From: a virus
Virus genome (UHGV): UHGV-1351066
Length of the DNA stretch: 40,965 nucleotides
Strand: one strand, 5' to 3'
The notes under the pieces are model-generated. The model was not told where the DNA came from. It did not search any database and worked only from the letters and a program-made list of their open reading frames with translations. Positions 370 to 40,965 of the stretch are shown here, one piece after another. Every line of letters starts with the position of its first letter. Position 1 is the stretch's first letter. The translations under genes and the position numbers were made by a program.

Positions 370-433
370 TTCTTACTATTTCCATAGGTAAATAATCACT
401 AATACTCATCTTTCGATGAGTGATTAATTAGTT

Positions 434-468
434 ACCGCGTTGTCGGCGGTGCAGATTGATAAAGAGCG
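434..468 (-). promoter_or_regulatory. nutR: boxA-like CGCTCTTTA plus boxB hairpin ACCGCCGACAACGCGGT
   Basis: Read on minus strand between cro stop and cII start; boxB has a GACAA loop like P22 boxB; followed by an imperfect hairpin (~385-420) that could be tR1. Confidence 0.6.
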
Positions 469-478
469 GATCCGCTTA

Positions 479-694: not shown

Positions 695-811
695 ATGCCC
701 TCCATAGTAACCATGAAACAATAATACGATATGTACTTTTGGAATGCAAACAAAAAATACATCTTGTGCATGGATGGTTTTAGTACAGAGCGTAATAATA
801 AGGATATGAAA
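695..811. promoter_or_regulatory. oR/pR/pRM divergent promoter-operator region
   Basis: 117-bp gap between divergent cro and cI; two copies of an AGTAC-N5-GTA motif in opposite orientation (723-737 and 782-796). Confidence 0.5.
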
Positions 812-1465
812 ATGAAATGGTATGAACTGGCTAGATCCAGAATGAAAGAACTCGGCATAACTCAAGAGAAGTTAGCTGAAGAGCTTGGTATGACGCAGGG
901 TGGAATTGGTCACTGGTTGCGCGGATCTCGTCATCCATCTCTTGACGAGATTGGTGTGGTGTTTAAATACCTTGGTATTGATAACGTCTCATTCAACCAC
1001 GACGGTACATTTTCACCTGTTGGCGAATACTCATCTGCCCCCGTTAAAAAACAATATGAGTACCCTGTTTTTTCTCATGTTCAGGCCGGGATGTTCTCGC
1101 CTGAGCTTAGAACCTTTACCAAAGGCGATGCGGAGAGATGGGTCAGCACAACCAAAAAAGCCAGTGATTGTGCGTTTTGGCTTGAAGTTGAAGGTAATTC
1201 CATGACCGCACCAACAGGATCCAAGCCAAGCTTTCCTGACGGGATGTTAATTCTCGTTGACCCTGAGCAGGCTGTTGAGCCAGGTGATTTCTGCATAGCC
1301 AGACTTGGTGGTGACGAGTTTACCTTCAAGAAACTGATCAGGGATAGCGGTCAGGTGTTCCTACAACCACTAAACCCGCAATATCCAATGATCCCATGCA
1401 ATGATAGCTGTTCCGTAGTAGGGAAAGTTATCGCCAGCCAGTGGCCTGAAGAGACATTTAGTTAA
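812..1465 (+). CDS. cI: CI-type repressor with LexA-like S24 autopeptidase domain
   Basis: HTH '[20 protein letters not shown]'; C-terminal 'GNSMTAP' and 'FKKL' catalytic Ser/Lys motifs; C-terminal half similar to P22 C2. Start at second ATG (812) chosen for AAGGA spacing. Confidence 0.85.
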
Positions 1466-1495
1466 CAGCCTCACCACTCTAAAACACACAACAAT

Positions 1496-1526
1496 AACCC
1501 GACCTTAGCGTCGGGTTTTCTTTTTC
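1496..1526 (+). terminator. rho-independent terminator downstream of cI
   Basis: CCCGAC-cttagc-GTCGGG hairpin followed by TTTTCTTTTT. Confidence 0.6.
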
Positions 1527-1590
1527 CAAAATATAAATCAATAAAATACAAAGTGTTATAAAAAACTAACCGCATTTAGAACATTTTGTA

Positions 1591-1619
1591 TTGACTCAAT
1601 AAAGTACACATCGTACTAT
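1591..1619 (+). promoter_or_regulatory. pL-like promoter with overlapping operator
   Basis: TTGACT-17 bp-TACTAT; the -10 overlaps the near-palindrome AGTACacatcGTACT (1603-1617), the same motif as in oR. Confidence 0.55.
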
Positions 1620-1665
1620 TTAGCCATCAGCAGGAAGCTGGAAGCCAAACGGAACAGATTGGCAG

Positions 1666-1699
1666 GCTCTTTAACTTCGATGGGGCGCTGACAAAGCGC
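1666..1699 (+). promoter_or_regulatory. nutL: boxA-like GCTCTTTAAC plus boxB GCGCTGACAAAGCGC
   Basis: Perfect 5-bp stem with GACAA loop, matching the P22 nutL boxB as I recall it; located between pL and N. Confidence 0.7.
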
Positions 1700-1818
1700 A
1701 AACAGATACCAAACGAGATGGGTTTGGCGGTGATGTGAATTGCAGCTGCAACGACAGCAACCAGAAGATCAGCACCTGGCGCATCACCACCAAAGCCATT
1801 TCACATGAGGAAAACATC

Positions 1819-2127
1819 ATGACGGTAATCGTGTACGGAAAATCAACATTTGCAGGAAATGCCAAAACTCGCCGTCATGAGCGGCGCAGAAAGCTGGCTA
1901 TCGAGCGTGATTCCATCTGCAACATCATCGATTCGATCTTCGGCACAGACAGTGAGGAAGCTGTTCAGGAAGAACCGAGAAAGCGTTTAAGTCTTTCTGA
2001 AAAAGCAATATCACTCGGCATCATCAGTAAATCAAATACAGATGCGAATGGCGGAAGCGTTTGTTTGCCTGAAGTTGCACTGTATGCTGCTGGTTACAGG
2101 TCAATGAAATCAATTACGGCGAGATAG
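1819..2127 (+). CDS. N: N-type antiterminator (P22 gp24-like)
   Basis: Contains 'GNAKTRRHERRRKLAIER', the P22 N arginine-rich boxB-binding motif; internal ATG with GAGGA RBS. Confidence 0.85.
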   Translation: MTVIVYGKSTFAGNAKTRRHERRRKLAIERDSICNIIDSIFGTDSEEAVQEEPRKRLSLSEKAISLGIISKSNTDANGGSVCLPEVALYAAGYRSMKSITAR

Positions 2128-2129
2128 AA

Positions 2130-2396
2130 ATGACTAGCAAACAAGTATCATATAAATGCTATTGCCCTTTATGTGGAAGAAAATTCAGCGCCAAGGCAGC
2201 ATGGAAGCATATCAATGATTATCATCCAAAAGCATCAGAACGTGAGTTGATGATGATAAGAGATGTAAAACGAGAAAAAATTTCTTTCGCAACAAAGCCA
2301 CTAAACGCCAACAAAAACGCAATATTGTATCAAATGCATCGTTCAAGTGGTCCAGATTATTCTGGAGGGCTTCCATCTCTTGGAAAGAAAAAATAA
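2130..2396 (+). CDS. hypothetical small Cys/His (zinc-ribbon-like) protein
   Basis: 88 aa; 'CYCPLCGRKF…H…H' pattern; no family recognised. Confidence 0.45.
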   Translation: MTSKQVSYKCYCPLCGRKFSAKAAWKHINDYHPKASERELMMIRDVKREKISFATKPLNANKNAILYQMHRSSGPDYSGGLPSLGKKK

Positions 2397-2532
2397 CCAC
2401 GCTCACGCTGGTTTTTAATGACATAAATAACCGTATTTACTACCGCAAGCCACGCAGTGAAATGGGTGTGACTTGTGTTGGTCGCCAGAAAATGAAATTA
2501 GGCAGCAAACCACTTATTTGAGAGGAATTAAT

Positions 2533-3156
2533 ATGTCATCAATCCGCTTAACTACGAGAATGAAAGAGGAAATCGCTCGTAACGCTTTAATTAAGTCTGG
2601 GGTTTTCACTGAACTTGAAGAAGTAACAAAGTTAAAGAACCAGCTTGCACTTGACGCCAGAGTTATTGCGTTTGGCGGTAAAAAGAAAACTGAGGAAGTG
2701 GATCAGTTATCATCCAAGTTAGTAGCTATAAGTGAAGAACTTGAAAAACTGGGATGTTCATTTTACTCATACGATGTTCGTTCTACATCAATTTATCTGA
2801 CTGTATCTGGCAGAAGAGTTGGCTGGCATTCATACGGAAAAGACGGCAACGGTGAAGATATATTGCTCCCCACCCCAGAAAAAGATAAATGCATGTTTGA
2901 CGCAGAACACGAAATAACAAAAAGGTTTGATGAAATCTGCGCATTGCAACAAAAACTTGAAGCCAAGAAAAAGGATATCAAATCAAATGTATGGGCTGCT
3001 TTGAACTCAGTCACAACAGTTAAGCGACTTATTGAAGTTTGGCCTGAAAGCAAAGAGTTGCTACCAAAAGAAGCAGATAAAGCAAGTACAGCACTTCCTG
3101 CTTTACGGGTAGAAGATTTGAATAAGATGATTGGACTTCCTTCCGAGGCCGCATAG
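2533..3156 (+). CDS. hypothetical protein, early-left accessory gene
   Basis: 207 aa from ATG at 2533 (GAGGAA RBS); no recognisable motifs; followed by a terminator. Confidence 0.5.
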   Translation: MSSIRLTTRMKEEIARNALIKSGVFTELEEVTKLKNQLALDARVIAFGGKKKTEEVDQLSSKLVAISEELEKLGCSFYSYDVRSTSIYLTVSGRRVGWHSYGKDGNGEDILLPTPEKDKCMFDAEHEITKRFDEICALQQKLEAKKKDIKSNVWAALNSVTTVKRLIEVWPESKELLPKEADKASTALPALRVEDLNKMIGLPSEAA

Positions 3157-3171
3157 TCGGCCTTTATTTTT
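3146..3171 (+). terminator. rho-independent terminator
   Basis: AGGCCG-catagt-CGGCCT hairpin then TTTATTTT; overlaps the stop codon of the 207-aa gene. Confidence 0.55.
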
Positions 3172-3290
3172 AGCATAAACAACAGAATAAACACTGCACT
3201 GTGTATTCATTCCAACGAGTGAATACACGGAGCAATGTCGCTCGTAACTAAACAGGAGCCGACTTGTTCTGATTATTGGAAATCTTCTTT

Positions 3291-3316
3291 GCCCTCCAAT
3301 GTGAGGGCTTTTTTAT
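3291..3316 (+). terminator. rho-independent terminator
   Basis: GCCCTC-caatgt-GAGGGC followed by TTTTTT; preceded by a 9-bp perfect inverted repeat GTGTATTCA…TGAATACAC (~3200-3227). Confidence 0.6.
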
Positions 3317-3398
3317 ATGCATACCAATAACGCTTCACGAGAGGTGTTTATTCATGAGCGTAAACGCTGATTAATGAACGCAGTTGATAGGATATAAA

Positions 3399-3911
3399 AT
3401 GGCATTTATAAAGATTCTTGAATTAATTTCCCTAAGTGAGATTAATAATGTTGTCAAATATAACCCTATTTCTGGTGAGTTCACATGGCTAAAATCTTAT
3501 GGAGCAAGGAAGATAGGTGGAACTGCCGGAACAATAACAACAAGCGGCTACTTAAGGATTTTCATTAACGGAAGACACTATGCTGCACATAGACTTGCAT
3601 GGATTATCACTTTCGGTGTTGAGCCTGAAGGTATTATCGACCATATAAATGGCATTAAGACAGATAACAGAATTTGCAATCTGAGGCTTGCAACTTACTC
3701 ACAGAATTCAATGAATAGTAAAATAAACACCCTCAACAAATCAGGTTGCAAAGGAGTCACATGGAAGAAGGAAAGTAGAAAGTGGGCTGCCTATGGGAAA
3801 TTAAACGGAAAGAAAAAACATCTAGGGTACTTTAATGAATTAGAAGATGCCAAAAAAGCTTACTGCGACTTTGCCAGAAAGCATCACGGCGAATTCTACA
3901 GGAGCAAATAA
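3399..3911 (+). CDS. HNH homing endonuclease with AP2-like DNA-binding domain
   Basis: 'IDHINGIKTDNRICNLRLAT' HNH motif and 'GVTWKKESRKWAAYG…KHLGYF' AP2-like segment; start at ATG 3399. Confidence 0.8.
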   Translation: MAFIKILELISLSEINNVVKYNPISGEFTWLKSYGARKIGGTAGTITTSGYLRIFINGRHYAAHRLAWIITFGVEPEGIIDHINGIKTDNRICNLRLATYSQNSMNSKINTLNKSGCKGVTWKKESRKWAAYGKLNGKKKHLGYFNELEDAKKAYCDFARKHHGEFYRSK

Positions 3912-4029
3912 TGAATGAATATATTTTAGCGGGTAGCGGCGTCATGTCCGCTTTCTACCCGCACGAATCTGAATTATCACGCCGAGTTAAACAATTAATC
4001 AGTGCAGCAAAGAAACAACTGGAGGCGTT

Positions 4030-4182
4030 ATGCGCAATGAAATAGCCATCAATCACCAGATGCTTCGTGCAGCACAAAACAAAGCAGTAATAGCCAGATT
4101 TATTGGTGATTCAAAAATGTGGCTTGAAGCAAATAAAGCGATGAAATCAGCTATCAATCTTCCGTGGTATCGCAGGAAATGA
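4030..4182 (+). CDS. small hypothetical protein (50 aa)
   Basis: ORF with GGAGG upstream; below the ORF-track size cutoff; function unknown. Confidence 0.3.
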   Translation: MRNEIAINHQMLRAAQNKAVIARFIGDSKMWLEANKAMKSAINLPWYRRK

Positions 4183-4263
4183 GTTTTACAGATAACTGGT
4201 CAGACGAAGAGTTCATTCGTCAGATGAACAAAATGCTCAATCAGCACAAAGAACAGGAGAAAG

Positions 4264-4575
4264 ATGATGATTCTGACTCTGAATGATAAGCGTGAAATAT
4301 CGCAAATAATCGCAAGTTTTACTGATGAAGATTACGAACGAATCAACAGTGAAGTTGATCGCCTCTGCAAACGTTGCGACCCAATAAGCGAAATGCTTCG
4401 CTCATATAAACCAGATGAACACACTAAGGACGCTATCGACTGGCTGGAAGATGATGACTGTAACTATCAGGAAAAAGCCGCTGAATGGTTCTGGGATGCA
4501 ATAACCGAAAGAGTTAAGGCTGAATATGCCTTCGCAATATTCAAACGCAGACACATTTTTGGAGAAGCAGCATGA
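4264..4575 (+). CDS. hypothetical protein (103 aa), acidic
   Basis: GGAGA RBS; stop overlaps recT start. Confidence 0.5.
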   Translation: MMILTLNDKREISQIIASFTDEDYERINSEVDRLCKRCDPISEMLRSYKPDEHTKDAIDWLEDDDCNYQEKAAEWFWDAITERVKAEYAFAIFKRRHIFGEAA

Positions 4576-5483
4576 GCAATATCGTTGAATTCGTTAAACA
4601 GCAAGAGCAGTTATTCTGCGGAGCATTGACTGAACAGACGGTGACATGGGCTAAGGAAAGCCAGTTTGCAATTCAGTATTTCCAGAAAAATGATTACCTG
4701 GCTAAAACGGCACTGGCAAATCCAACCAGCGCACAGAACGCCATCATCAATGTTGCGGCGATCGGCATCACCTTAAACCCGGCCAGCAAACTTGCTTATC
4801 TAGTTCCGCGCGACGGCATGGTTTGCCTTGATATCAGTTATATGGGATTGCTCCATATTGCAATGGAGTCTGGTGTTATCTCATGGGGTCAGGCAAAACT
4901 TGTTCATGCTAACGATACCTATGAGTCAAACGGGCTTGATAAAGCACCAACCCATAAATACAACGCCTTCGGTGATCGTGGTGATATCGTTGGCGTTTAC
5001 TGCACAGTTAAGACGCCAGCAGGTGATTATCTAACGGAAGAGATGAGTCTGGCTGAAATTGAGGCTGTAAGGAAAACAAGCAAGGCGGCATTCAGCGATA
5101 AAGGACCATGGGTAAATCACTGGAATGAGATGGCGCGAAAGACGGTCGTAAAGCGTGCAAGCAAGTATTGGCCTAAGGCATCACGTCTTGATAGTGCTAT
5201 TCACGTACTAAACGAAGAAGAAGGTGTGTGGACTGAACCAGTTATGCCGCACAAATCAGAGGAAGATATCCGCGAAGATGAACGGAAACGCCAGCAGGAA
5301 ATAACGGATAAAGCACAACTTCTTTGTGATGAAATGGCTCATGCTGAAAACATGGATGATTTGAAGCGATATTTTGCAGAAGCATATCGCCTGACATCTG
5401 GAATGAAATTGCAGCAGAACGTACAAGCCATTTACGCAGAATGCAAAGCGAAACTGGAGGTTGCCAGTGAGCAAACTGTATGA
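4572..5483 (+). CDS. recT: RecT-family single-strand annealing recombinase
   Basis: 'GPWVNHWNEMARKTVVKRASKYWP' matches the conserved RecT core (E. coli RecT 'GPWVTHWEEMAKKTAIRRLFKYLP'). Confidence 0.8.
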   Translation: MSNIVEFVKQQEQLFCGALTEQTVTWAKESQFAIQYFQKNDYLAKTALANPTSAQNAIINVAAIGITLNPASKLAYLVPRDGMVCLDISYMGLLHIAMESGVISWGQAKLVHANDTYESNGLDKAPTHKYNAFGDRGDIVGVYCTVKTPAGDYLTEEMSLAEIEAVRKTSKAAFSDKGPWVNHWNEMARKTVVKRASKYWPKASRLDSAIHVLNEEEGVWTEPVMPHKSEEDIREDERKRQQEITDKAQLLCDEMAHAENMDDLKRYFAEAYRLTSGMKLQQNVQAIYAECKAKLEVASEQTV

Positions 5484-5949
5484 AATTGCCAATGAGTACG
5501 CAAAATTGATGGATTCAGATTTAGAACCAGAGATGATTGCTGACACAATAGAAGGCATGGAAGGAGAATTTACCGATAAAATAGAGCAACTTCTTTCCGT
5601 CATTAAAAATGAATCTGGTTATGCCGAACGCCTCAAGGAAGAGGCAAAGTCACTGAATGAGCGAGCCGCAGTAATTCAAAATAAGATTGACAGCATTATG
5701 GCGTATATAGCGTCATCGCTTGAAATGGTTGGCAAGAAAAAGATTCGAGCAGGTATTCACCAGGTAACAATCCGCAAACCGTCAGAAACTGTAGAAATCA
5801 TCGACTCAAGCGCCCTTCCTCCTGAATACGTTGAGTTTGAAACGACAATTAAAGCCGACAAACTGGCAATCAAACACCAACTAAAAGCAGGAATAAATAT
5901 CCCCGGCGCTCAACTCAAAGTTGGGAAACCTTCACTTCTTATCAAATAA
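5467..5949 (+). CDS. Gp157-like protein (Sipho_Gp157 family), RecT partner
   Basis: About 160 aa with 'SKLYEI…' N-terminus typical of the family, directly downstream of recT; GTG start inferred from GGAGG spacing. Confidence 0.5.
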   Translation: MSKLYEIANEYAKLMDSDLEPEMIADTIEGMEGEFTDKIEQLLSVIKNESGYAERLKEEAKSLNERAAVIQNKIDSIMAYIASSLEMVGKKKIRAGIHQVTIRKPSETVEIIDSSALPPEYVEFETTIKADKLAIKHQLKAGINIPGAQLKVGKPSLLIK

Positions 5950-5960
5950 CGGTATCGCCT

Positions 5961-6275
5961 ATGAAAAAGACTCCATGGGAGAAATGGGAAGTCGATTTCT
6001 TGCGCGAAGTATCGGCGACAATGCCAGTTGAAGTTATTGCTGAAAAACTGGAAAGGACTGAAAAAGCAGTTATGGCGAAAGCAACAAGGATTGGCGCTGA
6101 CATTGTTAGCCGACTTCGTGGAAGACGCTGGACAAGAGCAGAAGTATCACTTTTCGGTAAGTTCTCCGCAGAAGAAATAGCAATTGCAACCTGCCGCTCA
6201 ATTTATTCAGTAAGGGCTATGCGATACAAGCTAAAAAAACTCGATGAAGAAAGAGCAGGCATACGAATAAATTAA
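5961..6275 (+). CDS. hypothetical protein with two tandem HTH-like segments
   Basis: 104 aa; internal duplication ('W…[15 protein letters not shown]' and '[28 protein letters not shown]'). Confidence 0.45.
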
Positions 6276-6291
6276 CAAAGAGGAATTTACC

Positions 6292-6456
6292 ATGAGAGGA
6301 CTTGCATACAATCCCGGCATTCTTCCGGCAGAAATGATTATTCGCCAACGCGTAAAGCCAATGCCATCGAGAGAGGAATTGCTTAAGAGAAATTCTTTTC
6401 CATCAGTAAATCAAAACAAATATCTGAATGCGATGTGGCGGAGTGGGAAGAAATGA
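6292..6456 (+). CDS. small hypothetical protein (54 aa)
   Basis: AGAGGA RBS 7 nt upstream of ATG; not in ORF track (<60 aa). Confidence 0.35.
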
Positions 6457-6914
6457 AACAAATGTCACTAATTGAGATGGATGGTTTTCTGAAAGGCAAA
6501 TGCATCCCACGAGATTTAAAGGTTAACGAAACAAACGCTGAATATCTTGTCCGTAAGTTCGGTGAACTTGAATCAAAACTGGAAACGGCGTTGCGGGAGT
6601 GTAGTTCTGCTGGAATCACGATTGATAACCTTGAGGCTAAATGCGCGAAGATGGCTGCTGAAAATACCTCGCTTAAGCAATCTGAGAAGGAATTTAATGA
6701 CTTTTGTCGTGAGGAGTTTAGCGAATGGGAAGATGATGTTACTGAAACCCCAGCCACCGATGCTTTCCTGGCTGAAATTGAACGCAAAGCAATCCGCAAG
6801 TTCATTAACAGCATTGAACACATCCTGCGTGACAAGCTGTCTCCGTATGACACCGAAGAGATGCTTGAGGCTATGCGTATTTTTCTGGAAGAACAGAGTG
6901 GTGAGCAAAAATGA
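6453..6914 (+). CDS. hypothetical coiled-coil protein
   Basis: ORF on the early operon strand; start set at ATG 6453 after GGAG. Confidence 0.5.
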
Positions 6915-7228
6915 CAATCACAAAACAACGGGTAGAAGAAATCATATCCCGCATTGAAATGTATGGACATGGTGCAGGATATACCGCTGACGAGGTTTAT
7001 GACCTAGCTGTACTGGCGCTGAATTTATCAAATATCGCAAACCTGAAGCGATACGAGCTTGATATGGATGGTTGTGACTCGTGCGGTCAGGATTGTGGCG
7101 CTGACATGACTGAAGATTCTGATGGCAATTATGTCCTGTTTGATGACGTGGTTAAGTTGTTTGAGTTTGATACAACCACTCAGAAGTTAGAAGGCCCAGC
7201 AAAGGAGGCAACCAGTGAGCGAAATTAA
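6911..7228 (+). CDS. hypothetical protein (105 aa)
   Basis: Start overlaps the previous stop (translational coupling). Confidence 0.5.
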   Translation: MTITKQRVEEIISRIEMYGHGAGYTADEVYDLAVLALNLSNIANLKRYELDMDGCDSCGQDCGADMTEDSDGNYVLFDDVVKLFEFDTTTQKLEGPAKEATSERN

Positions 7229-7883
7229 TTACCAGGCACTGCGTGAGATAGCAAAACAGGCAACACAAGGCGAATGGGTCGCATTTATTTCGTCGGGTAC
7301 TGGTACATATGCGGTGCATACACCAGGTGATAAACGATGTGAAGACGTTATCAGATGGACCGGCCTTGATGGACAGGAAAACGCAGAGAATAACGCGCGT
7401 TATATCGCAGCTTTCAACCCTGAAGTAGTGCAGGCGTTGCTGGATGAACGGGAAAGAAACCAGCAATACATCAAACGCCGTGACCAGGAGAACGAGGATA
7501 TTGCGCTAACGGTAGGGAAGCTGAGAGTTGAGCTTGAGGAAGCAAAATCAAAACTCAACGAGCAGCGTGAGTATTACGAAGGTGTTATCTCGGATGGAAG
7601 TAAGCGCATAGCAGAACTGGAAGCGCGGGAAATAAAACCAGCCAAAGGTGAAGTTCTGGTCGTTGTATCTGGTTTTACTGGTTGCGGAAAAAGCGCCATT
7701 GCCGGGGAAATAGAAATCGCGATGAAGGCTATTGGTGTACCGGTTAAGTGGACTAATGGCGATGCAGAAAAGCGCATGACTGGCGCTGACTGGCTGACTG
7801 CGATTGAGATGTACAAACCAACTGTGCGCATCGTGGAAGTTAATGTGCCACGCGCCGCTGGCATTCGCATCAAAGGAGAGTGA
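7215..7883 (+). CDS. Ea22-like early protein
   Basis: N-terminal 'MSEINYQALRE' and central coiled coil resemble the lambdoid Ea22 family; GTG start after AAAGGAGG. Confidence 0.55.
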   Translation: MSEINYQALREIAKQATQGEWVAFISSGTGTYAVHTPGDKRCEDVIRWTGLDGQENAENNARYIAAFNPEVVQALLDERERNQQYIKRRDQENEDIALTVGKLRVELEEAKSKLNEQREYYEGVISDGSKRIAELEAREIKPAKGEVLVVVSGFTGCGKSAIAGEIEIAMKAIGVPVKWTNGDAEKRMTGADWLTAIEMYKPTVRIVEVNVPRAAGIRIKGE

Positions 7884-7884
7884 T

Positions 7885-8172
7885 ATGGCAACTTTGCAGG
7901 AATTAATCGACCTGACGCCAGAACAGGAAAAAGCGTGGAATCGCCTTGTGAAGGCTGTAAAGGATTTCAGGGCAGCCGGAGGAAAGTTTTATAGCGTCCT
8001 GGACACGCTGAGCGCATACAACGGCGAGCACGTTGCCAGCATTGATAACGATAAGGGCTACCACACTGCAAGCGTCTATATGCCTAGCATTGATGCGCCA
8101 GGACTAACCAGTTGGGCTGATGATTGGCACGGCATCACGCTGAAAGATGGCGTTGAAGTGGATGAGGACTAA
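7885..8172 (+). CDS. hypothetical protein (95 aa)
   Basis: AAAGGAG RBS; ATG at 7885. Confidence 0.45.
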   Translation: MATLQELIDLTPEQEKAWNRLVKAVKDFRAAGGKFYSVLDTLSAYNGEHVASIDNDKGYHTASVYMPSIDAPGLTSWADDWHGITLKDGVEVDED

Positions 8173-8175
8173 CAC

Positions 8176-8829
8176 ATGACTACTTTTACCGACAAAGAAC
8201 TGATTAAAGAAATCAGAGAGCGAATCGGCAGCCTGGACGTGCGAGACAATATTGAGCGCCTGGCTTATGAAATCGCACTGGCATCGCTGGAACGCGAACA
8301 GATTCGCCACGAGCATGCCAAATGGTCTGACTCCACATTTGGCTGCGTTGGCCCCATTGGTCCACTGAAACACCTCTCAAAAGAGGCACTGGAAGCCGCA
8401 GCCGAACCAGAAGATCTTAGCGAGTGGGCTGATATGCAGTTTCTGTTGTGGGATGCACAGCGCCGTGCTGGCATCAGCGATGCTGAAATTACCGCTGCTA
8501 TGGAAGATAAATTGAAGATCAACATGGAGCGCCAGTGGCCTGAGCCAAAAGATGGTGAGCCTCGCTTGCACATTAAAGAACCCGGCAACTCTCCGGTAAT
8601 TCCGGATGGTTGGATAAGCTGTAGTGATCGAATGCCTGAAAAGGGCCAGAACGTGCTTATTTCGGTGAATTTCGATAGCTCTCTGGTTGAACCGCTAATA
8701 TGCTCCGCACGCTATACCGGAAGCACCTTTCGGAGAGGAGATGCAACGATTAAGCCGGGTAATGGTATTGAGCAAGCAACTCACTGGATGCCGCTACCGG
8801 AACCGCCGCAGGAGGTTAACCGTGGCTAA
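8176..8829 (+). CDS. DUF550/DUF551-type two-domain protein (MazG-like N-terminus)
   Basis: Architecture and motifs resemble lambdoid early-region DUF550/DUF551 proteins; recalled, not searched. Confidence 0.45.
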   Translation: MTTFTDKELIKEIRERIGSLDVRDNIERLAYEIALASLEREQIRHEHAKWSDSTFGCVGPIGPLKHLSKEALEAAAEPEDLSEWADMQFLLWDAQRRAGISDAEITAAMEDKLKINMERQWPEPKDGEPRLHIKEPGNSPVIPDGWISCSDRMPEKGQNVLISVNFDSSLVEPLICSARYTGSTFRRGDATIKPGNGIEQATHWMPLPEPPQEVNRG

Positions 8830-8928
8830 CCTGCAACTTGCCGTCAAAGGTGAATAACAATCCTCGCACTCGCGGGGATTTCTTTTATCTGAACTCGCTA
8901 CGGCGAGTTTTGTTTTATGGAGATGATA

Positions 8929-9096
8929 AATGCACTTCCGAGTCACAGGTGAATGGAATGGAGAGTCATTCGACAGGGTTATCGAAGCAGAGGACATCAA
9001 CGACTGCTATAACCACTGGATGATATGGGCGCAGATAGCGCATGCAGACGTAACCAATATTCGAATTGAAGAACTGAAAGAACACCAAACCGCCTG
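8929..9096 (+). CDS. small hypothetical protein (55 aa)
   Basis: GGAG RBS; terminator immediately downstream. Confidence 0.3.
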
Positions 9097-9111
9097 ATGG
9101 CGGTTTTTTAT
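9088..9111 (+). terminator. rho-independent terminator
   Basis: AACCGCC-tgat-GGCGGTT followed by TTTTTTATT. Confidence 0.65.
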
Positions 9112-9123
9112 TGGAGACAAGAA

Positions 9124-9468
9124 ATGTCAGATTTGGCTATGAAGATTTTGAAATGGCAATCGACTGGCGATGTCGGCATCAGTAGCGCAACTCTTGCCTC
9201 AATCGCATGTGGACTGAAAAAGAATATCTATGGTCATCACTTCGGCGCTCCACATGACGCAGCCGATTTCCGACGATGCGTTGCACTTGTTGAGCAGATT
9301 CCAGAAATCAGAGATTCATTCAACAAGGTTGCAAAGCGCGTTCCGGCATTCAAAGGAATCCTCAACGAATGGGATTCACTCGTTGCTCTGTTGAAGTCTG
9401 AAATGAAGATACACGGAAACAAAGCACCAGAGACTTACAGAAGAATTAGCGAGTTACGCAAGGACTAA
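9124..9468 (+). CDS. hypothetical protein (114 aa) bracketed by terminators
   Basis: GGAGACAAG RBS; terminators on both sides. Confidence 0.45.
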   Translation: MSDLAMKILKWQSTGDVGISSATLASIACGLKKNIYGHHFGAPHDAADFRRCVALVEQIPEIRDSFNKVAKRVPAFKGILNEWDSLVALLKSEMKIHGNKAPETYRRISELRKD

Positions 9469-9473
9469 CCACA

Positions 9474-9503
9474 GCCTCACATTCGATGAGGCATTTTCAT
9501 TTA
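9474..9503 (+). terminator. rho-independent terminator
   Basis: GCCTCA-cattcga-TGAGGC followed by a T-rich run. Confidence 0.5.
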
Positions 9504-9527
9504 TCAAGATATCCAGACCTACCATCG

Positions 9528-9550
9528 CCGCATCAATGCGGTTTTTTATT
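9528..9550 (+). terminator. rho-independent terminator
   Basis: CCGCA-tcaa-TGCGG followed by TTTTTTATT. Confidence 0.6.
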
Positions 9551-9592
9551 ACCTGATTTGCAGGTTCGATTCCCTATTCGGAGATAGCACTC

Positions 9593-9793
9593 ATGCAACA
9601 CGAACTACAGCCTGATTCCCTGGTTGATTTGAAATTCATCATGGCTGATACTGGCTTTGGTAAAACCTTCATCTACGACCGGATTAAGTCCGGCGACCTG
9701 CCAAAAGCCAAAGTTATCCACGGACGAGCAAGATGGTTATATCGTGACCATTGTGAATTCAAAAATAAGCTCTTAAGCCGCGCCAATGGGTAA
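9593..9793 (+). CDS. xis: excisionase / AlpA-family HTH regulator
   Basis: 66 aa; AlpA-like small HTH protein directly upstream of int on the same strand. Confidence 0.6.
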   Translation: MQHELQPDSLVDLKFIMADTGFGKTFIYDRIKSGDLPKAKVIHGRARWLYRDHCEFKNKLLSRANG

Positions 9794-10042
9794 AATAGCG
9801 GGTAAAATATTTCTCACATCTAAAAAACACCATTCCAATCAATCCCCTGCTGCTTCAAGTAGATGTCTGCAGGGGACACCATTTATCAGTTCGCTCCCAT
9901 CCGTACCAGTCCGCAAAATCCCCTGAATATCAAGCCTTCCGTAGATTAACAGTTCGTAATGGTTCGCGTCAGATCGTTGACAGCCGCACTCCATGACGGG
10001 TAAAAAGTGGATAAAATAATTTTACCCACCGGATTTTTACCC
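9788..10042. repeat. GGGTAAAA / TTTTACCC motif cluster flanking the int start
   Basis: Direct copies at 9788-9796, 9800-9808 and 9998-10006; inverted copies at 10020-10027 and 10035-10042. Confidence 0.5.
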
Positions 10043-11200
10043 ATGCTCACCGTTAAGCAGATTGAAGCAGCAAAGCCGAAAGAAAAACCATACCGCCTTC
10101 TCGATGGTAATGGCCTGTACCTTTATATCCCTGTATCCGGGAAAAAGGTATGGCAGCTTCGCTACAAGATTGACGGTAAGGAGAAAATCCTGACCGTCGG
10201 AAAATATCCGCTTATGACTTTGCAAGAGGCAAGGGATAAAGCATGGACTGCGAGGAAAGACATCTCGGTTGGCATCGATCCGGTAAAGGCGAAAAAGGCT
10301 TCGTCTAACAACAATTCCTTTAGTGCGATTTACAAGGAATGGTACGAGCACAAGAAGCAAGTCTGGTCAGTAGGCTATGCAACTGAACTTGCCAAAATGT
10401 TTGATAACGACATTTTACCCATCATCGGCGGTCTTGAGATTCAGGATATTGAGCCGATGCAACTGTTGGAAGTAATCCGCAGATTTGAAGATCGCGGTGC
10501 AATGGAGCGAGCCAACAAAGCCCGCAGAAGATGCGGCGAGGTTTTCCGTTACGCTATTGTCACCGGAAGGGCTAAATATAACCCGGCACCTGACCTTGCA
10601 GACGCCATGAAAGGATACCGCAAGAAGAACTTCCCGTTTCTTCCTGCAGACCAGATCCCGGCATTTAACAAAGCACTGGCAACATTTTCAGGAAGTATCG
10701 TATCGCTCATTGCGACCAAAGTTTTACGCTACACAGCCCTCAGAACAAAAGAGCTTCGTTCCATGCTATGGAAGAACGTCGATTTTGAAAACAGGATTAT
10801 CACCATCGACGCCAATGTGATGAAGGGACGCAAGATTCATGTTGTTCCTATGTCAGACCAGGTGGTTGAACTTCTCACTACGCTAAGCTCCATCACTAAA
10901 CCAGTATCAGAGTTTGTTTTTGCCGGGCGCAACGATAAGAAGAAGCCAATCTGCGAGAACGCGGTATTGCTTGTGATTAAACAAATCGGCTATGAGGGTC
11001 TGGAAAGCGGTCACGGATTCAGGCATGAATTCAGCACGATTATGAACGAGCACGAATGGCCTGCTGACGCCATTGAAGTGCAACTTGCACATGCCAACGG
11101 CGGATCTGTGCGCGGAATTTACAACCATGCTCAGTATCTCGATAAACGCAGAGAAATGATGCAGTGGTGGGCGGACTGGCTTGATGAAAAGGTGGAGTGA
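10007..11200 (+). CDS. int: tyrosine integrase, P4-type
   Basis: N-terminal 'KPKEKPYRLLDGNGLYLYI' arm-binding domain and C-terminal 'HGFRHEF…' catalytic region; start may be ATG at 10043. Confidence 0.85.
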   Translation: MDKIILPTGFLPMLTVKQIEAAKPKEKPYRLLDGNGLYLYIPVSGKKVWQLRYKIDGKEKILTVGKYPLMTLQEARDKAWTARKDISVGIDPVKAKKASSNNNSFSAIYKEWYEHKKQVWSVGYATELAKMFDNDILPIIGGLEIQDIEPMQLLEVIRRFEDRGAMERANKARRRCGEVFRYAIVTGRAKYNPAPDLADAMKGYRKKNFPFLPADQIPAFNKALATFSGSIVSLIATKVLRYTALRTKELRSMLWKNVDFENRIITIDANVMKGRKIHVVPMSDQVVELLTTLSSITKPVSEFVFAGRNDKKKPICENAVLLVIKQIGYEGLESGHGFRHEFSTIMNEHEWPADAIEVQLAHANGGSVRGIYNHAQYLDKRREMMQWWADWLDEKVE

Positions 11201-35817: not shown

Positions 35818-36160
35818 GCTTTCGTCTTAATTCCATGTTTTCTGATTCAAGTTTTTCCATGTCTTGTTGGTATCGATCGCGGTGTTCTTTCCATGCTTTT
35901 CGATACGCCTTCATGTATGTCGTATTGGCCTTTCTCTTTGCCTGACGAACTGCGTGGTGGTTTTCCACAAACCAGTCAGGGTCGTTAAATGCTGCTCTGG
36001 CGCATGTATCCCAATAATTTGTTGCCTCCCTGTTTAGCCATAAAATACTGATAAATGGCAACTGGATAGACACCATTTTTCGTTGAGACTCTTTCTCGCC
36101 AAACATGTGCCCTTTTTTGATGCTAAGGCCAAATCCAGGTTGAATTAAAAGCATTGTCAT
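35753..36160 (-). CDS. hypothetical nin-region protein
   Basis: Start set at the ATG giving ATGA overlap with ninE stop; basic C-terminal coiled coil; family not assigned. Confidence 0.4.
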
Positions 36161-36333
36161 TTCCTCGCACGATGTCTTAGCCACCGGATATCCCACAGGT
36201 GAGCCGTGTAATTGAAGGTTTTTACGTCAGATTCTTTTGGGATTGGCTTGGATTTATTTCTGGAGCGTTTCGGTGGAAGGTAATTGCAGTTTTCGCAGAT
36301 TATGTCGGTGAAACTTCGTCGCTGTCGTCTCAT
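36157..36333 (-). CDS. ninE: NinE
   Basis: '[58 protein letters not shown]' near-identical to lambda NinE. Confidence 0.8.
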
Positions 36334-36770
36334 GCCGCCCTGTCTCCCCATCGCGCTTTCCATTCGAGAGCCAGTCGCGCTTCGTCTGACCACTTAACGC
36401 CATGCTCTGTACCGAATGCCTGTATAAGCTCTAATAGCTCCGCAAATTCGCTTACACGCATCCTGCTGGTTGACTGGCCTATTACCACAAAGCCATTCCC
36501 GGCAAGGTTAGGAACAACGTCCTGCTGCTTTAAGGCTGCGGTGAACACACACTTCCAGCTTTCTGCATCCAGCCAGCGACCATGCCATTCAACCTGACGA
36601 GAGACGTCACCAAGGCAAGCCCAAAGCTTTCGGTTTTGGTCTAAGCTGCGGTTGCGTTCCTGAATGGTTACTACGATTGGTTTGGTTGGGTCTGGAAGGA
36701 TTTGCTGTACTGCGTGAATAGCGTTTTGCTGATGTGCCGGAGATCGAATTTCAAAGGTTAGTTTTTTCAT
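36330..36770 (-). CDS. ninB: NinB recombination protein
   Basis: Near-identical over full length to lambda NinB ('[31 protein letters not shown]…'). Confidence 0.85.
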
Positions 36771-36818
36771 GACTTCCCTCTCCCCCAAATAAAAAGGCCT
36801 GCGATTACCAGCAGGCCT

Positions 36819-37430
36819 TTATCTGTTTTTAACACGCTTTCGAGTCCTTTTAGATTTTTCCTTAAGATATTCCGCAAGTTTATCCTCATCATTATTAAAT
36901 TGAGATAAAAGCTCATGCTCGCAATTAAGTGCTTTACTCGCATAAGTTCCATATAGTTTCTTTCTTGCTAGTGCTGCTATGAATGCTGCATCTTCTTTGC
37001 TATCGAAATACCCTAACGATATTGTCTTATTTTTATAACCAACATAAGACTTCCACCTGCCAGTTGGCTTATACCAAGACACTCCAATTGCACCGGATGT
37101 GTTTAATCTATTCCCTACAATGTTTCTTGCATTCTGCTCTTCTGTTGCCAGTCTTAGATTTGAAATCCTATTGTCAAGTCTGTTCCCATTTACATGATCA
37201 ATAAACTTAGGAGGCCATTTTTTGTATACATAGAACCAAGCAAGTCTATGCGCATAATACAAAACATTATTTATGCTAATGCATATATAACCACCACTAA
37301 CACCTCCAGCAATACTACCTTTTACTCTTACTACTGAATTTGTTTTTAGCCATTTAAATATTCCTGTTTCTGAGTCATATGATAATGTTGACAGAAGCTC
37401 ATCGTGATCAATTAGTTTTTTTATTCGCAT
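36819..37430 (-). CDS. HNH homing endonuclease with AP2-like domain (second copy)
   Basis: 'IDHVNGNRLDNRISNLRLAT' HNH motif; 'GVSWYKPTGRWKSYVGYKNKTISLGYF' AP2-like; paralogous in architecture to the 3399-3911 gene. Confidence 0.8.
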   Translation of the reverse strand: MRIKKLIDHDELLSTLSYDSETGIFKWLKTNSVVRVKGSIAGGVSGGYICISINNVLYYAHRLAWFYVYKKWPPKFIDHVNGNRLDNRISNLRLATEEQNARNIVGNRLNTSGAIGVSWYKPTGRWKSYVGYKNKTISLGYFDSKEDAAFIAALARKKLYGTYASKALNCEHELLSQFNNDEDKLAEYLKEKSKRTRKRVKNR

Positions 37431-37511
37431 AAAGAATATACTTAATAATATATACAGTAAGAACCATTAGTAACGATAACCCTGCTATTAGCTCAGTGAT
37501 GTAGATGGTCA

Positions 37512-39977
37512 TCAGAATCCTCCTTTCTTCTTGGACTGCGGTTCCTCGCGTTCACGGCGGCGCATTTCAGCAGACTGTTGGTCTGTGTCATAAATAGCGC
37601 CATTTGCCTGAATGCAATACACCGTGCCGGTATTGCCATGACGATTGAGACGAAGGATTAGTTCGGTTTCACCAGGTGGAACACTGTCATCAAAAGCACC
37701 TTCACGATGGATCCCCACCCAATAATCGCAATCCTGTTCAATCTGCCCTGTATCTCGTGAGTCACTTGGTAGTGGGCGTTTATTGGTTCGGCTTTCCAGT
37801 GCGCGGTTAAGCTGCGTCAGAAGCACAACAACGCAATCAAGCTCTTTGGCAAGGTTCTTCAGTCCTTTGGTGATCATGCCGTAAGCAAGGTCGTTGCGAT
37901 CGGCCTTCTCAGCAGTCATTAGTGTCAGGTAATCGACCAGAATCATGCCAACGCATCCTTTTTCTCGTTTGATTCGACGGCTTTCGCTGACGATTTGAGC
38001 CAGAGATAATCCCGGCGTGTCGTCGATGTAAAGCAGGTCGATTTCACTCAAGCGATTGGCTGTTTCGATCGCCCTGTTGAAGTCACCATCGTAATCACCC
38101 TGATAGCCGTCATCGGCGTCATTTGTCGCCGGAAGGTAAAAAATATTTGGGTTAACACCTGACTTCTGTCCTACCAGTTTTTCCAGTATCTGGTCACCTG
38201 GCATTTCAAGGCTGAACATCAGAGCTGGCTTTTTCTCATGCACTGCGCAGTTGATTGCCATCTGGCTGTATAGCGTGGTGTTGTGGGTTAGAATGTATCC
38301 GTCAGTTGCATACAAATGTCTCTCGTGGGATACCATGATGCAAATGCACTCTTCACGTCCAATATACTCAACCGACGTGATAACAGGCGCACTTGTTTTG
38401 ATGCGTTTTGCAGTGAATTTTTGCTTCAGGCGTGGAGATTTTATGTGTGATAGAACCTCATCAGGCAACCTGATTGCGCAAATATGGGCATCCATACCTT
38501 TGCGCATTTCTCCCTTATAACTGAATTTCGGCTCCTGTTTGGTTGTCATACGACACACGCCACCAAGAGAATGCACCAGCCGCTTTACACCATCTGACAG
38601 GAACTTGCTTGCCGAGCTAAAGCGCAGGGCATTATTTCCTTCAACCCAACCATCGGTTTCAAGTAATCCGCATAGAACATCAATACGAGTTTGCTTATCA
38701 GCAGAAAAAATAATATCCGGGATAATTTTAATCTCTGACATCCGGCCGTAGATACCAAGCCGTTGCATAACCCGCGTAAGAGATAATTTGCGGCTAAACT
38801 TGTGAGATAGGGAGTAATCGCAGCCAGAAACATGCCTGACTTCAATATCGTCACCCACTTCAGATCTTACTCGCTCAATGATGTATGGTTCCGTCATGCT
38901 GATTCGTGGCGTACCTGCAAGATTTCCATCGCCAAGTAACGCACCTAACAGCCATGGGCTAATCCCTAAATCAACAGGCAATCCGAAGTCACCGCTAATA
39001 CCAGGAACATGAATGCGGCTTTGATAGCGAACGCATTCCATCATGTCCCGTAGGCGGCAGGTGTCTACAACATCAACGCCACCGGTAATACGGTTACTAT
39101 GAATTTCCCACAAATGATCATCCGCGCAATCAACGGTTCTTCCGTCAGAGAACGTAACTCGGTAAATATCTCGCTCCCCTTGAGGAAAAACTCCAGACAC
39201 GAATGATGGTTGTCCATCCACTGATGCTAGGGAATCTCCAACACATACGTCACGAAATGTTGTCCATGAACCATCAGCAAGCAAAATGCGTGAATTAAGC
39301 GGTTGCGCTTTCCCCATCTTAGGGCGAGCGCCAATGACAAACAGAGAGCCTTTCACCAGGCCTTTCGGTGACAGCATCCTGTCCAGCGATGGGATCCCTG
39401 TGCTCATTCCTCGTTGTTCTCCTGACGGGTCAAATCGCTTCTCAAGGTCGCTAACCCAGTCTTCCATGACCTCACCAAATGAGCGAAGGCCGCGACGCGA
39501 TCCGGTTTTTGCATGGTCTGTCAGTTGCGTGAAAATCGCCTGAATAGTTTCGTACTTCTGCGTTGCAGTCATTCCGTTGCGGGAATAGAGCAATTCCGTC
39601 GCTTCAGTCATGCGGTTGATGGCGTAGCGTTCCATTGCGGTTTCACGAACCTGCATTGCATAGGCAACGATGTTTGCTGCGCTTGGCGTGTTCTTTGCGA
39701 TCTCAGCGATATAAGCAAAACCGCCAACAGACGCCGTTAACGATTTACGCTCCAGTTCATCGAAAAGCGTCAGGCCATCTACTGGCTTTTGCTCCCGGTG
39801 CATTCTGGTTATTTCTTCGAAAAGGATTTTGTGTGGCCGGCTGTAAAATGAGTCAGGCTTCAGCATCGCCAGAACTTTCTGGACGCGCTCACTGCTGTCA
39901 TCATCCAGAAGCAATCCACCAATCACCGCCTGCTCTGCCTCGATGCTATGGGGCGGCGCATAAAAATTATCGGTCAT
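37512..39977 (-). CDS. dnaB: DnaB-family replicative helicase containing an intein
   Basis: N-terminal region and RecA-like core collinear with E. coli DnaB ('SVGGFAYIAEIAKNTPSAANIVAYA', 'ALMFSLEMP'); Walker A 'GARPKMGK' is split from 'TTLYSQMAIN'; ATG at 39977 has a GAGGGTG RBS. Confidence 0.85.
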   Translation of the reverse strand: MTDNFYAPPHSIEAEQAVIGGLLLDDDSSERVQKVLAMLKPDSFYSRPHKILFEEITRMHREQKPVDGLTLFDELERKSLTASVGGFAYIAEIAKNTPSAANIVAYAMQVRETAMERYAINRMTEATELLYSRNGMTATQKYETIQAIFTQLTDHAKTGSRRGLRSFGEVMEDWVSDLEKRFDPSGEQRGMSTGIPSLDRMLSPKGLVKGSLFVIGARPKMGKAQPLNSRILLADGSWTTFRDVCVGDSLASVDGQPSFVSGVFPQGERDIYRVTFSDGRTVDCADDHLWEIHSNRITGGVDVVDTCRLRDMMECVRYQSRIHVPGISGDFGLPVDLGISPWLLGALLGDGNLAGTPRISMTEPYIIERVRSEVGDDIEVRHVSGCDYSLSHKFSRKLSLTRVMQRLGIYGRMSEIKIIPDIIFSADKQTRIDVLCGLLETDGWVEGNNALRFSSASKFLSDGVKRLVHSLGGVCRMTTKQEPKFSYKGEMRKGMDAHICAIRLPDEVLSHIKSPRLKQKFTAKRIKTSAPVITSVEYIGREECICIMVSHERHLYATDGYILTHNTTLYSQMAINCAVHEKKPALMFSLEMPGDQILEKLVGQKSGVNPNIFYLPATNDADDGYQGDYDGDFNRAIETANRLSEIDLLYIDDTPGLSLAQIVSESRRIKREKGCVGMILVDYLTLMTAEKADRNDLAYGMITKGLKNLAKELDCVVVLLTQLNRALESRTNKRPLPSDSRDTGQIEQDCDYWVGIHREGAFDDSVPPGETELILRLNRHGNTGTVYCIQANGAIYDTDQQSAEMRRREREEPQSKKKGGF
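38280..39308 (-). other. intein (343 aa) with LAGLIDADG homing-endonuclease domain inside the helicase P-loop
   Basis: Starts 'AQPLNSRILLADGS' (block A spacing as in Sce VMA 'CFAKGTNVLMADGS'), ends '…GYILTHN' followed by extein Thr; two LAGLIDADG-like motifs ('LLGALLGDGNLAG', 'LCGLLETDGWVEG'). Confidence 0.75.
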
Positions 39978-40866
39978 CGTGTTCACCCTCACGAACTTTC
40001 AGGTAGGTATTATCGTTAAGCAGGAAATCAAATCCCTTTTTGTGCCAGACGGTTCCGCGTTGATGGTTTGGGCGCTCTTCGAACATCCATCGGCAATTTT
40101 CGCCAACGTAGCTCAAATAATTTCTCCAGTCCTGCATCGTGAACCCATGCCCGTCAAGCTGGCGGGTTATCACTCCGGCTTTGCGCCAGAACGTTCGGAT
40201 CTGGTTTTTACGCTTGTCATTCAGTGCGCGGATTCTTGGAGCTTCAGGAAGGATTTCGTGGTAAGCATCGACAACATCCTGACAGCTGACGGAAGGTTTT
40301 TTCTTGTCAGACTTTTTGTCTGCTGTGGCACTCTCTAATACGTCAGTATTAGAGATAATATTATTATATTCTTTATCTGTGGTAATTTGCTGGTAATCTG
40401 CTGGTACAGCATTGCTTACAGGCATTGGTATTGCTGGCTTTGAGGTGGTAATTTGCTGGTAATCTGCTGGTACAAAATTTGACTGATAATCGTCATATTT
40501 CTCTACCGAGAAAACTGAGAATTTACCGTGTGAAACCCAGTCAATCATGCCGAGTTTTTTGAACTTTCTAAGCAGGTACTGAACGCGATCTGGTTTGAGT
40601 CCTGTTTCAAACGCCAGAGAGTTTCTACCGCCAAGTAGCTTCCCTCTGCCTACCAGAATTTCTCCTGCGTCAGTCATTACATACTCAGGCGTATGCTTTG
40701 CTTTGAGGATTAAGTGAACCCACAGATGCGCTGCTTCTGCATCCTTGTAAAACGGCACATCCATAATTTTACGGTGCAGCAAGGCATACCCCTTACCGCT
40801 GCTTTGATGCGGTTGTTGTAGCCTTCTGGCCTCTCTGGCTTCGGCTAGATTAGATATGTTACTCAT
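39967..40866 (-). CDS. replication initiator (lambda O / P22 gp18 analogue)
   Basis: Directly upstream of the helicase; internal tandem peptide repeat '[10 protein letters not shown]' x2 encoded by iteron-like DNA repeats; start overlaps an upstream stop context. Confidence 0.6.
40336..40474. repeat. candidate origin: AT-rich tract plus 28-bp direct repeats (GCTGGTA iterons) inside the initiator gene
   Basis: GGTAATTTGCTGGTAATCTGCTGGTACA at 40381-40408 and 40447-40474; AT-rich 40336-40380. Confidence 0.5.
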
Positions 40867-40965
40867 GACCTTTCTCCTTCTGCATCAGCTTCACTTTTTC
40901 CAACTCAGCCCGGAATCGACCAGGCTGCTTGAAGCTGGACAGGAAGCGATCACGTAGTATGTGTT

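Follow-up and report, generated by a model that had tools for sequence, protein, structure and literature searches.

The stretch of viral DNA considered here, UHGV-1351066 (40,965 nucleotides; "the window" throughout), carries on its minus strand a gene for a phage replicative helicase of the DnaB family. The helicase is interrupted inside its P-loop, also called the Walker A motif, by a 343-residue insert that is a strong candidate for a full-length class 3 intein with its own LAGLIDADG endonuclease. The reading frame runs from one helicase half through the insert and into the other: ...FVIGARPKMGK/AQPLNSRILL...GYILTHN/TTLYSQMAIN... (a slash marks a junction here and below). The insert corresponds to residues 229-571 of this frame, leaving residues 1-228 and 572-826 as the two helicase halves. 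Pfam places the DnaB N-terminal domain at residues 13-117 and DnaB_C at 572-792. With the NCBIfam model TIGR03600 ("phage replicative helicase, DnaB family"; cutoff 498.65 bits) the protein reaches 559.7 bits, in two stretches that break exactly at residues 229/572.

Joined to each other, the flanks give a predicted spliced product of 483 residues and a computed mass of 54.05 kDa, counted from a GTG start. The likely start, however, is the ATG at 39977 rather than the GTG at 39992: the sequence GAGGG lies 9 nucleotides upstream of that ATG, and the same start is annotated in phage HK629 and is seen in protein P0011. Translation from the ATG makes both the precursor and the product five residues shorter.

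The boundaries of the insert were established by comparison with empty sites. A megablast search of 50,697 phage records matched 87 lambdoid phages (VT2-Sakai, Stx1 and Stx2 phages, HK629, phiv205-1, and others) in two pieces, together 59% of the gene, that are about 98.9% identical; these phages therefore carry intein-less alleles. Alignment of the VT2-Sakai and HK629 P genes to the window reveals a precise in-frame insertion of 1029 bp between AAA (Lys) and ACG (Thr). The empty site spans CCTAAGATGGGGAAA/ACGACGCTATACAGC, also written CCTAAGATGGGGAAA/ACGACGCTATACAGCCAG. Excision of positions 38280-39308 restores the Walker A sequence GARPKMGKT, reading GARPKMGKTTLY, and leaves a gene identical to VT2-Sakai P at 1437 of 1452 nucleotides, with two amino-acid differences. 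The N-extein differs at 7 of 684 nucleotides from VT2-Sakai P, and at equally many from HK629 P; the C-extein differs from VT2-Sakai P at 8 of 768. The only change adjacent to the site, relative to the empty alleles, is a synonymous ACG-to-ACC substitution in the +1 codon.

Because this alignment sets the Lys/Ala and Asn/Thr junctions uniquely, the boundaries are fixed independently of any motif reading, and boundary ambiguity was rejected on the same ground. The initial annotation, made from the letters of the window, had proposed a 343-residue insert with precisely these coordinates, a helicase P-loop restored by its removal, and masses of about 54 kDa and 38 kDa for helicase and intein. The empty alleles bear out the first two proposals, and the computed values of 54.05 and 38.27 kDa agree with the third. 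The position itself, between the Lys and Thr of the P-loop, is a "classic" site of intein insertion (PMC5050341).

Class 3 inteins are defined by the lack of an N-terminal nucleophile together with Trp at B:12, Cys at F:4, Thr at G:5, and Ser or Thr at +1 (PMC2807308; PMC5050341). The insert displays each of these features. Position 1 is Ala (GCG) rather than Cys, Ser, or Thr; the run His65-Leu66-Trp67 sets Trp at B:12, two residues past the B:10 His; block F contributes Cys323 at F:4; Thr341 at G:5 is followed by the penultimate His342 and the terminal Asn343; and the +1 residue is Thr. (The motifs HLW, CICIMV, and THN are intein residues 65-67, 321-326, and 341-343.) A MAFFT alignment was made of the insert with the class 3 intein of phage Bethlehem (MP-Be), the Min27 P intein, and three metagenomic relatives. 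In it, His65, Trp67, Cys323, Thr341, His342, Asn343, and Thr+1 stand opposite Bethlehem His65, Trp67, Cys320, Thr339, His340, Asn341, and Thr+1. The block B His and Trp also align with the HQW of 6bs8 and 6rix, which are structures of mycobacterial DnaB inteins, and Cys323 aligns with the catalytic Cys of 6bs8.

Most of what the initial annotation had said of these residues stands. The Ala start, HLW, the block F Cys within ICIMV, THN, and Thr+1 are all where it had put them. Alignment to known class 3 inteins, the check it had suggested, yields a residue-for-residue match of the conserved blocks with the Bethlehem intein. Its assignment to class 3 holds at the level of sequence features, with alignments extending to 6bs8, 6rix, and 6riy. 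Its reading of the Trp/Cys/Thr (WCT) pattern needs one correction: the triplet is complete, but its Thr is Thr341 at G:5, not Thr+1.

The insert belongs to a large family. Its similarity to known proteins is far beyond chance: searched exhaustively with HMMER (phmmer), a set of 1.84 billion cluster representatives yielded 15,603 matches with E-values of 1e-3 or lower, and 2,794 with E-values of 1e-30 or lower. The best match has 59% identity (E 2.3e-133). Most of the top matches are about 800 residues long and carry the insert at about residue 200-230, with the junction ...GK/AQPL...THN/T; these are DnaB proteins whose P-loop holds the same intein. (A word-indexed homologue search returned 28 proteins, the full-length protein itself being absent from them; family size is taken from HMMER.)

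Conservation was counted over the intein copies in the top 150 proteins. Several of these carry more than one intein domain, hence 200 aligned domains, of which about 177-179 are aligned at each catalytic position. His65 is present in 179/179, Trp67 in 178/179, Cys323 in 176/177, Thr341 in 177/177, His342 in 176/177, and Asn343 in 177/177; in block A, Q2, P3, and L4 are conserved at 97%, 97%, and 91%. Cys321 by contrast is variable among relatives (A/C/T/V). Since Cys323 is invariant in all but one copy and Cys321 is not, Cys323 is the predicted nucleophile.

An endonuclease is indicated by motifs and by predicted fold. Pfam LAGLIDADG_3 matches the insert at 22.5-25.1 bits, at or above its cutoff of 22.5, and Hom_end_hint gives a sub-threshold match. 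As in two-motif monomeric enzymes, there are two LAGLIDADG helices, each with a terminal acidic residue. The position of Asp219 is Asp in 178 of 182 relatives, whereas that of Asp127 is Asp in 145 and Asn in 31. Both acidic residues are retained here, and this copy therefore looks catalytically intact.

The intein was modelled with AlphaFold from a 26-sequence alignment, giving a predicted local distance difference test score (pLDDT) of 90.6 and a predicted template-modelling score (pTM) of 0.90; a single-sequence run (pLDDT 34.2) was left unused. The model predicts a two-domain fold of PI-SceI type, HINT plus endonuclease. Its top Foldseek match in the PDB is PI-SceI itself (1ef0; E 1.1e-16, TMq 0.70), followed by the TliVMA and PhoVMA inteins, PI-PfuI, and I-DmoI. 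The HINT fold is likewise recovered in the predicted model, with Foldseek matches to 6riy, 6bs8, 6rix, and the Prp8, Ssp DnaB, and GyrA inteins. The splicing-domain part superposes on 6riy, 6rix, and 6bs8 with a root-mean-square deviation of 2.3 Å over about 100 columns, at 27-29% identity. Pfam, the Asp127 and Asp219 motifs, and the PI-SceI-like model thus all favour the LAGLIDADG endonuclease named in the initial annotation.

Table 1. Features of the helicase gene, its predicted intein, and selected neighbours in the window
Feature	Position	Strand	Remarks
Intein-containing precursor gene, phage DnaB-family replicative helicase	37512..39992	minus	Single uninterrupted open reading frame, 826 codons from GTG 39992
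N-extein: helicase N-terminal domain to Walker A ...GARPKMGK	39309..39992	minus	Lys-1 codon AAA 39309-39311
Predicted intein, 343 residues, 38.27 kDa	38280..39308	minus	Ala1 GCG 39306-39308 to Asn343 AAC 38280-38282
Block A AQPLNSRILLADG	39270..39308	minus	Non-nucleophilic Ala1; AQPL conserved in family
Block B GRTVDCADDHLWEI	39102..39143	minus	His65 (B:10, 39114-39116), Trp67 (B:12, 39108-39110)
Endonuclease region (predicted)	38409..38996	minus	Pfam LAGLIDADG_3; Foldseek matches led by PI-SceI
LAGLIDADG motif 1, LLGALLGDGNL	38919..38951	minus	Acidic Asp127 (38928-38930)
LAGLIDADG motif 2, VLCGLLETDGW	38646..38678	minus	Acidic Asp219 (38652-38654)
Block F REECICIMVSHERHLYA	38307..38357	minus	Cys323 (F:4, TGC 38340-38342); Tyr333, conserved aromatic
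C-terminal junction with Thr341-His342-Asn343 (G:5-7), Thr+1	38277..38300	minus	Thr+1 is ACC 38277-38279
C-extein: remaining RecA-like ATPase domain from TTLYSQMAIN, with stop codon	37512..38279	minus	DnaB_C match 572-792
O-like replication gene, precedes helicase	39967..40866	minus	Contains 35-nt iteron-like direct repeats
HNH_3/AP2 open reading frame, 203 residues, directly downstream of helicase	36819..37430	minus	
Integrase gene	10007..11200	plus	

In Escherichia coli, empty sites outnumber occupied ones. Among 5,426 complete E. coli genomes, 18 carry intein DNA at no less than 99.6% identity, in every case chromosomally, and a 600-nucleotide spliced-junction probe finds the uninterrupted site in 357 genomes of the same collection. 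With 18 sites occupied and about 357 empty, about 5% of the available sites of this allele family are therefore occupied. The intein is in none of the 50,697 phage records: all 87 DNA matches are intein-less, and the best tblastn match is 46% identical. When five intein-bearing loci were compared, the intein differed at 0-7 of 1029 nucleotides, with at most two amino-acid changes and no stop or frameshift. The exteins among these loci vary more, by up to 18 of 768 nucleotides.

In one of them, from strain ET846, the intein occupies a different helicase allele. Its exteins are 64% (protein) and 69-74% (DNA) identical to those of the window; its intein is 99.7% identical, and high identity ends 12 nucleotides upstream and 8 nucleotides downstream of the intein. 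The junctions of the two allele types are informative. Empty alleles of the window type (354 genomes) read GGG AAA/ACG, and a window-type empty allele with ACC was found in no genome. The empty allele of the ET846 type, from strain TOK-001, reads GGT AAA/ACC (site GGTAAA/ACCACGCTGTAT). Both types, when occupied, read GGG AAA/intein/ACC, and ACC is the +1 codon in every one of the five intein-bearing alleles examined. An occupied allele of either type is thus set apart from its empty relatives by one synonymous base abutting the intein, and at that base it agrees with the occupied allele of the other type. Such a junction mosaic is as expected from homing with a very short co-conversion tract, not from exchange of whole-gene modules. 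It has the signature of recent homing between helicase alleles, with co-conversion tracts of a few nucleotides, and suggests that the endonuclease has been active.

The ET846 chromosome (NZ_CP100895.1) contains two copies of the intein, and each half of the ET846-type helicase likewise has two matching places in it. Two prophages, perhaps with homing between them as co-residents, could account for this, as could a duplication.

By homology with the class 3 inteins of Bethlehem, Mycobacterium smegmatis, and Mycobacterium chimaera (PMC2807308, PMC6195587, PMC7664689), a mechanism for splicing can be proposed. Cys323, positioned and activated by His65, Trp67, and Thr341, would attack the peptide bond between Lys(-1) and Ala1, the latter being non-nucleophilic, to form a thioester-branched intermediate. 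The N-extein would then be transferred to the side chain of Thr+1. Cyclisation of Asn343 would release the 38-kDa intein, and an O-to-N shift would produce the continuous sequence ...GARPKMGKTTLY... in an active helicase of about 54 kDa.

In the unspliced precursor the P-loop would be split between its invariant Lys and Thr, and ATPase activity is expected to be absent. The phage would therefore depend on splicing for its replication. The same dependence has been assumed for M. smegmatis DnaBi1 (PMC6195587). Once free, the intein, through its LAGLIDADG endonuclease, would cleave helicase alleles that lack an intein, at the codons of the P-loop, and double-strand-break repair would then copy the intein into the cut allele (homing).

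A further role is speculative and, in our estimate, unlikely: the intein could control replication of the prophage post-translationally, as a switch gated by redox state or stress. Cys323 forms a C-x-C with Cys321, and Cys61 lies in block B; either Cys321 or Cys61 could form a reversible disulfide with the catalytic Cys323 under oxidative stress. The disulfide would leave the P-loop split, delaying maturation of the helicase after induction. Among relatives, Cys321 is Cys in 42/176 and Cys61 in 110/179. The Cys48-Cys118 trap of M. smegmatis DnaBi1 provides an analogue (PMC6195587), although the position of its Cys48 partner is not conserved.

Public annotation takes a different view of the gene. 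In each of the four RefSeq loci inspected (L001, E. coli 631; L007, ET846; L008, AMSCJX03; L009, EA7), PGAP reports two "incomplete" pseudogene halves that exactly flank the intein, leaving its 1029 nucleotides unannotated. In effect, this treats the insert as dead: a non-splicing relic of an intein that disrupts the helicase and renders it non-functional. Prophages do often decay, no NCBIfam intein model reaches its cutoff in a search of the insert, and protein P0002 carries a deletion through the intein. The frame nevertheless stays open through the insert in all five loci, and every invariant catalytic position is intact, as are both acidic LAGLIDADG residues. The same intein also recently entered a helicase allele 64% identical in protein, which requires that the mobile element be functional or have been active very recently, and the window holds a complete-looking P22-like structural module. 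The PGAP call arises because there is no matching intein model, not because of a lesion, and we regard a dead insertion as improbable. A non-splicing domain insertion was also considered and rejected.

Splicing by another route is less probable by far. In a class 1 or class 2 (KlbA-like) mechanism Cys323 would be merely structural, and in class 2 the +1 residue would itself attack the N-terminal junction. Ala1 does occur also in class 2 KlbA inteins, and block F:4 is structurally and catalytically important in all intein classes (PMC2807308). But class 1 requires Cys, Ser, or Thr at position 1, where the insert has the Ala of a conserved AQPL, and class 2 has Cys+1 and no WCT (PMC2807308), where the insert has Thr+1 and the complete triplet. 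Moreover, class 3 splicing is the route taken by the closest solved and characterised relatives, which occupy the same position in the DnaB P-loop (PMC6195587, PMC7664689). Both mechanisms were rejected on Ala1, Thr+1, and the triplet.

More weight, though still well short of even odds, goes to the view that the distribution reflects only ordinary shuffling of lambdoid modules, with an inactive endonuclease and an intein passively inherited along with the helicase gene. The neighbouring genes (O-type, HNH, methyltransferase) differ among intein-bearing prophages, as mosaic recombination predicts, and the frequency of Asn in place of the first LAGLIDADG Asp makes endonuclease decay common in the family. 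Exchange of whole genes, however, cannot set a nearly identical intein between exteins as divergent as those of ET846, nor is it easily squared with an identity that breaks within 12 and 8 nucleotides of the junctions, or with the single junction-adjacent synonymous base that each occupied allele shares with the other. Both catalytic Asp residues, too, are kept in this copy.

A class 3 intein with an endonuclease remains the preferred reading, and several considerations count against it. Lambdoid phages recombine freely, and part of the distribution could be ordinary module exchange. The co-conversion argument for the ET846-type allele draws on one empty allele, that of TOK-001. RefSeq, as described, treats the helicase gene as a pseudogene, and both splicing and DNA cleavage are inferred from homology. 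Two residues, Ile322 and Ala334, differ from the family majority (Gln, and Val/Ile/Leu, respectively). Block B:7 is Ala62, where MP-Be has Ser and M. smegmatis DnaBi1 has Asp; this position is variable in the family, and Ser62 is dispensable in MP-Be (PMC2807308). Finally, the WCT residues grafted onto the gp41-1 intein were not enough on their own for productive splicing (PMC7664689), so the triplet is to be seen as necessary but not sufficient. With these points counted, the probability that the insert is a full-length class 3 intein with a LAGLIDADG endonuclease is put at about 0.85.

By its gene content, the window is a P22-like E. coli prophage: it encodes an integrase, a tailspike with the P22 head-binding domain, a stabilisation protein of gp10 type, the P22 portal, a terminase, and NinB. 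Positions 1-10000, beyond the integrase, are presumably host chromosome or attachment-site flank. No tRNA genes were found anywhere in the window.

The gene preceding the helicase is O-like. A 35-nucleotide direct repeat within it (40379-40413 and 40445-40479) is 94% identical between its copies, with a further copy offset by 11 nucleotides (GGTAATTTGCTGGTAATCTGCTGGTAC); the repeats encode a repeated 10-residue peptide. Being iteron-like, they may mark an origin of replication that, as in lambda, would lie within the initiator gene.

On its other side, the helicase gene is followed by an open reading frame with Pfam matches to HNH_3 (8e-16) and an AP2 DNA-binding domain. From its domains this appears to be a free-standing gene of homing-endonuclease type; the replication module would then hold two selfish elements, independent of each other. 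It occupies the same spot in E. coli AMSCJX03, and is absent in strains 631 and EA7. The 5-kb replication/nin segment as a whole (window 36000-40965) has no end-to-end match in complete E. coli genomes, the best match covering 85%; the arrangement in which this O-type gene, the intein-bearing helicase, and the HNH gene stand together is therefore mosaic and, as such, has no representative in that collection.

One further protein gives a glimpse of rearrangement. In P0002 (565 residues; NCBI/Logan, on a contig of 235,726 bp), the N-terminal part of the helicase and the first ~112 residues of the intein (99% identical) continue in frame into a "phage stabilisation" protein resembling P22 gp10, of which the C-terminal part is present. 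This chimera implies a large internal deletion in the prophage, from inside the intein to the gp10 gene.

As a molecule, the insert is unremarkable within a known and very large family, and is a textbook case at the classic Lys/Thr site of the P-loop. The main value of the case lies elsewhere: public annotation mislabels the gene as two pseudogenes, and the population data show a clean signature of recent homing. Because RefSeq and PGAP split the gene into two pseudogene fragments, prophages that carry it may be scored as replication-defective; NCBI protein sets also lack the protein. As a full-length class 3 intein native to E. coli and still carrying an endonuclease, with natural empty targets in the well-studied VT2-Sakai, HK629, and Stx phages, the insert would make a convenient and genetically tractable system for the study of class 3 splicing and of homing between lambdoid prophages.

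How does this intein compare with known systems? A phmmer search of the PDB gives as best matches 6riz, 6bs8, 6rix/6riy, and, in the middle of the insert, PI-SceI. The first of these is the "WCT-grafted" gp41-1 intein variant C1A/F65W/D107C (PMC7664689). PI-SceI, the VMA1 intein, shares the overall two-domain fold and a weak sequence match in the endonuclease core. It differs in being a eukaryotic class 1 intein (Cys1/Cys+1) inserted in a V-ATPase, with ~15% identity and an extra DNA-recognition region.

The founding and biochemically dissected class 3 intein, MP-Be, has the same architecture: 341 residues, with HINT and LAGLIDADG domains, and with both splicing and endonuclease activity demonstrated (PMC2807308, PMC5050341). 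Identity to the present intein is ~26%, and MP-Be has Pro1, Gln-1, a terminase host, and a site other than the P-loop Lys/Thr. Its name as a "DnaB" intein is historical. It lies in gp11 (903 residues, encoded just upstream of the portal gene; AY500153), and this host is the terminase large subunit, TerL1-c (PMC5050341). Two other Bethlehem proteins were considered and set aside: gp62, the DnaB-like helicase, has an uninterrupted P-loop and no intein, and gp52 carries a separate, unrelated class 1 intein. The statement in the initial annotation that class 3 inteins were described in phage DnaB helicases therefore survives as a matter of naming; the founding host is a terminase, and the true precedents at a DnaB P-loop are the mycobacterial DnaBi1 inteins (PMC6195587, PMC7664689).

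Those mycobacterial inteins, M. smegmatis DnaBi1 (6bs8) and M. chimaera DnaB1 (6rix/6riy), share with the present one the DnaB host family and the Walker A site after GK. They also share Ala1, the counterparts of His65 and Trp67, the block F Cys, THN, and a hydroxyl residue at +1; their PDB sequences match with E-values of 1e-6 to 1e-5. Class 3 splicing has been demonstrated experimentally for both (PMC6195587, PMC7664689). They are, however, mini-inteins of ~139-145 residues that have lost the endonuclease, whereas the insert retains a full LAGLIDADG domain; and their hosts are cellular actinobacterial DnaB proteins with Ser at +1, rather than an E. coli phage helicase with Thr at +1.

The closest phage relative is the P-protein intein of the Stx phages Min27 and phi24B. 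A literature search for inteins in DnaB-like helicases of E. coli prophages returned nothing specific beyond mention of this P intein, which is noted, with no test of it, in PMC3430580. At 342 residues, it is 46% identical over all 343 residues of the present intein, and shares Ala1, HLW, CLCIMV, THN/T, and the LAGLIDADG motifs. It too resides in E. coli lambdoid prophages, and it too follows the GK of a P-loop (GHGK/ACPL...ATHN/TE). The exteins are different: a fusion of TOPRIM primase and gp4d-type helicase in Min27 and phi24B, and the DnaB N-terminal domain with DnaB_C, of HK022/VT2-Sakai type, in the window. So is the treatment of the two genes in public records, where the Min27/phi24B intein is annotated within an intact coding sequence and the gene described here is split into pseudogenes.

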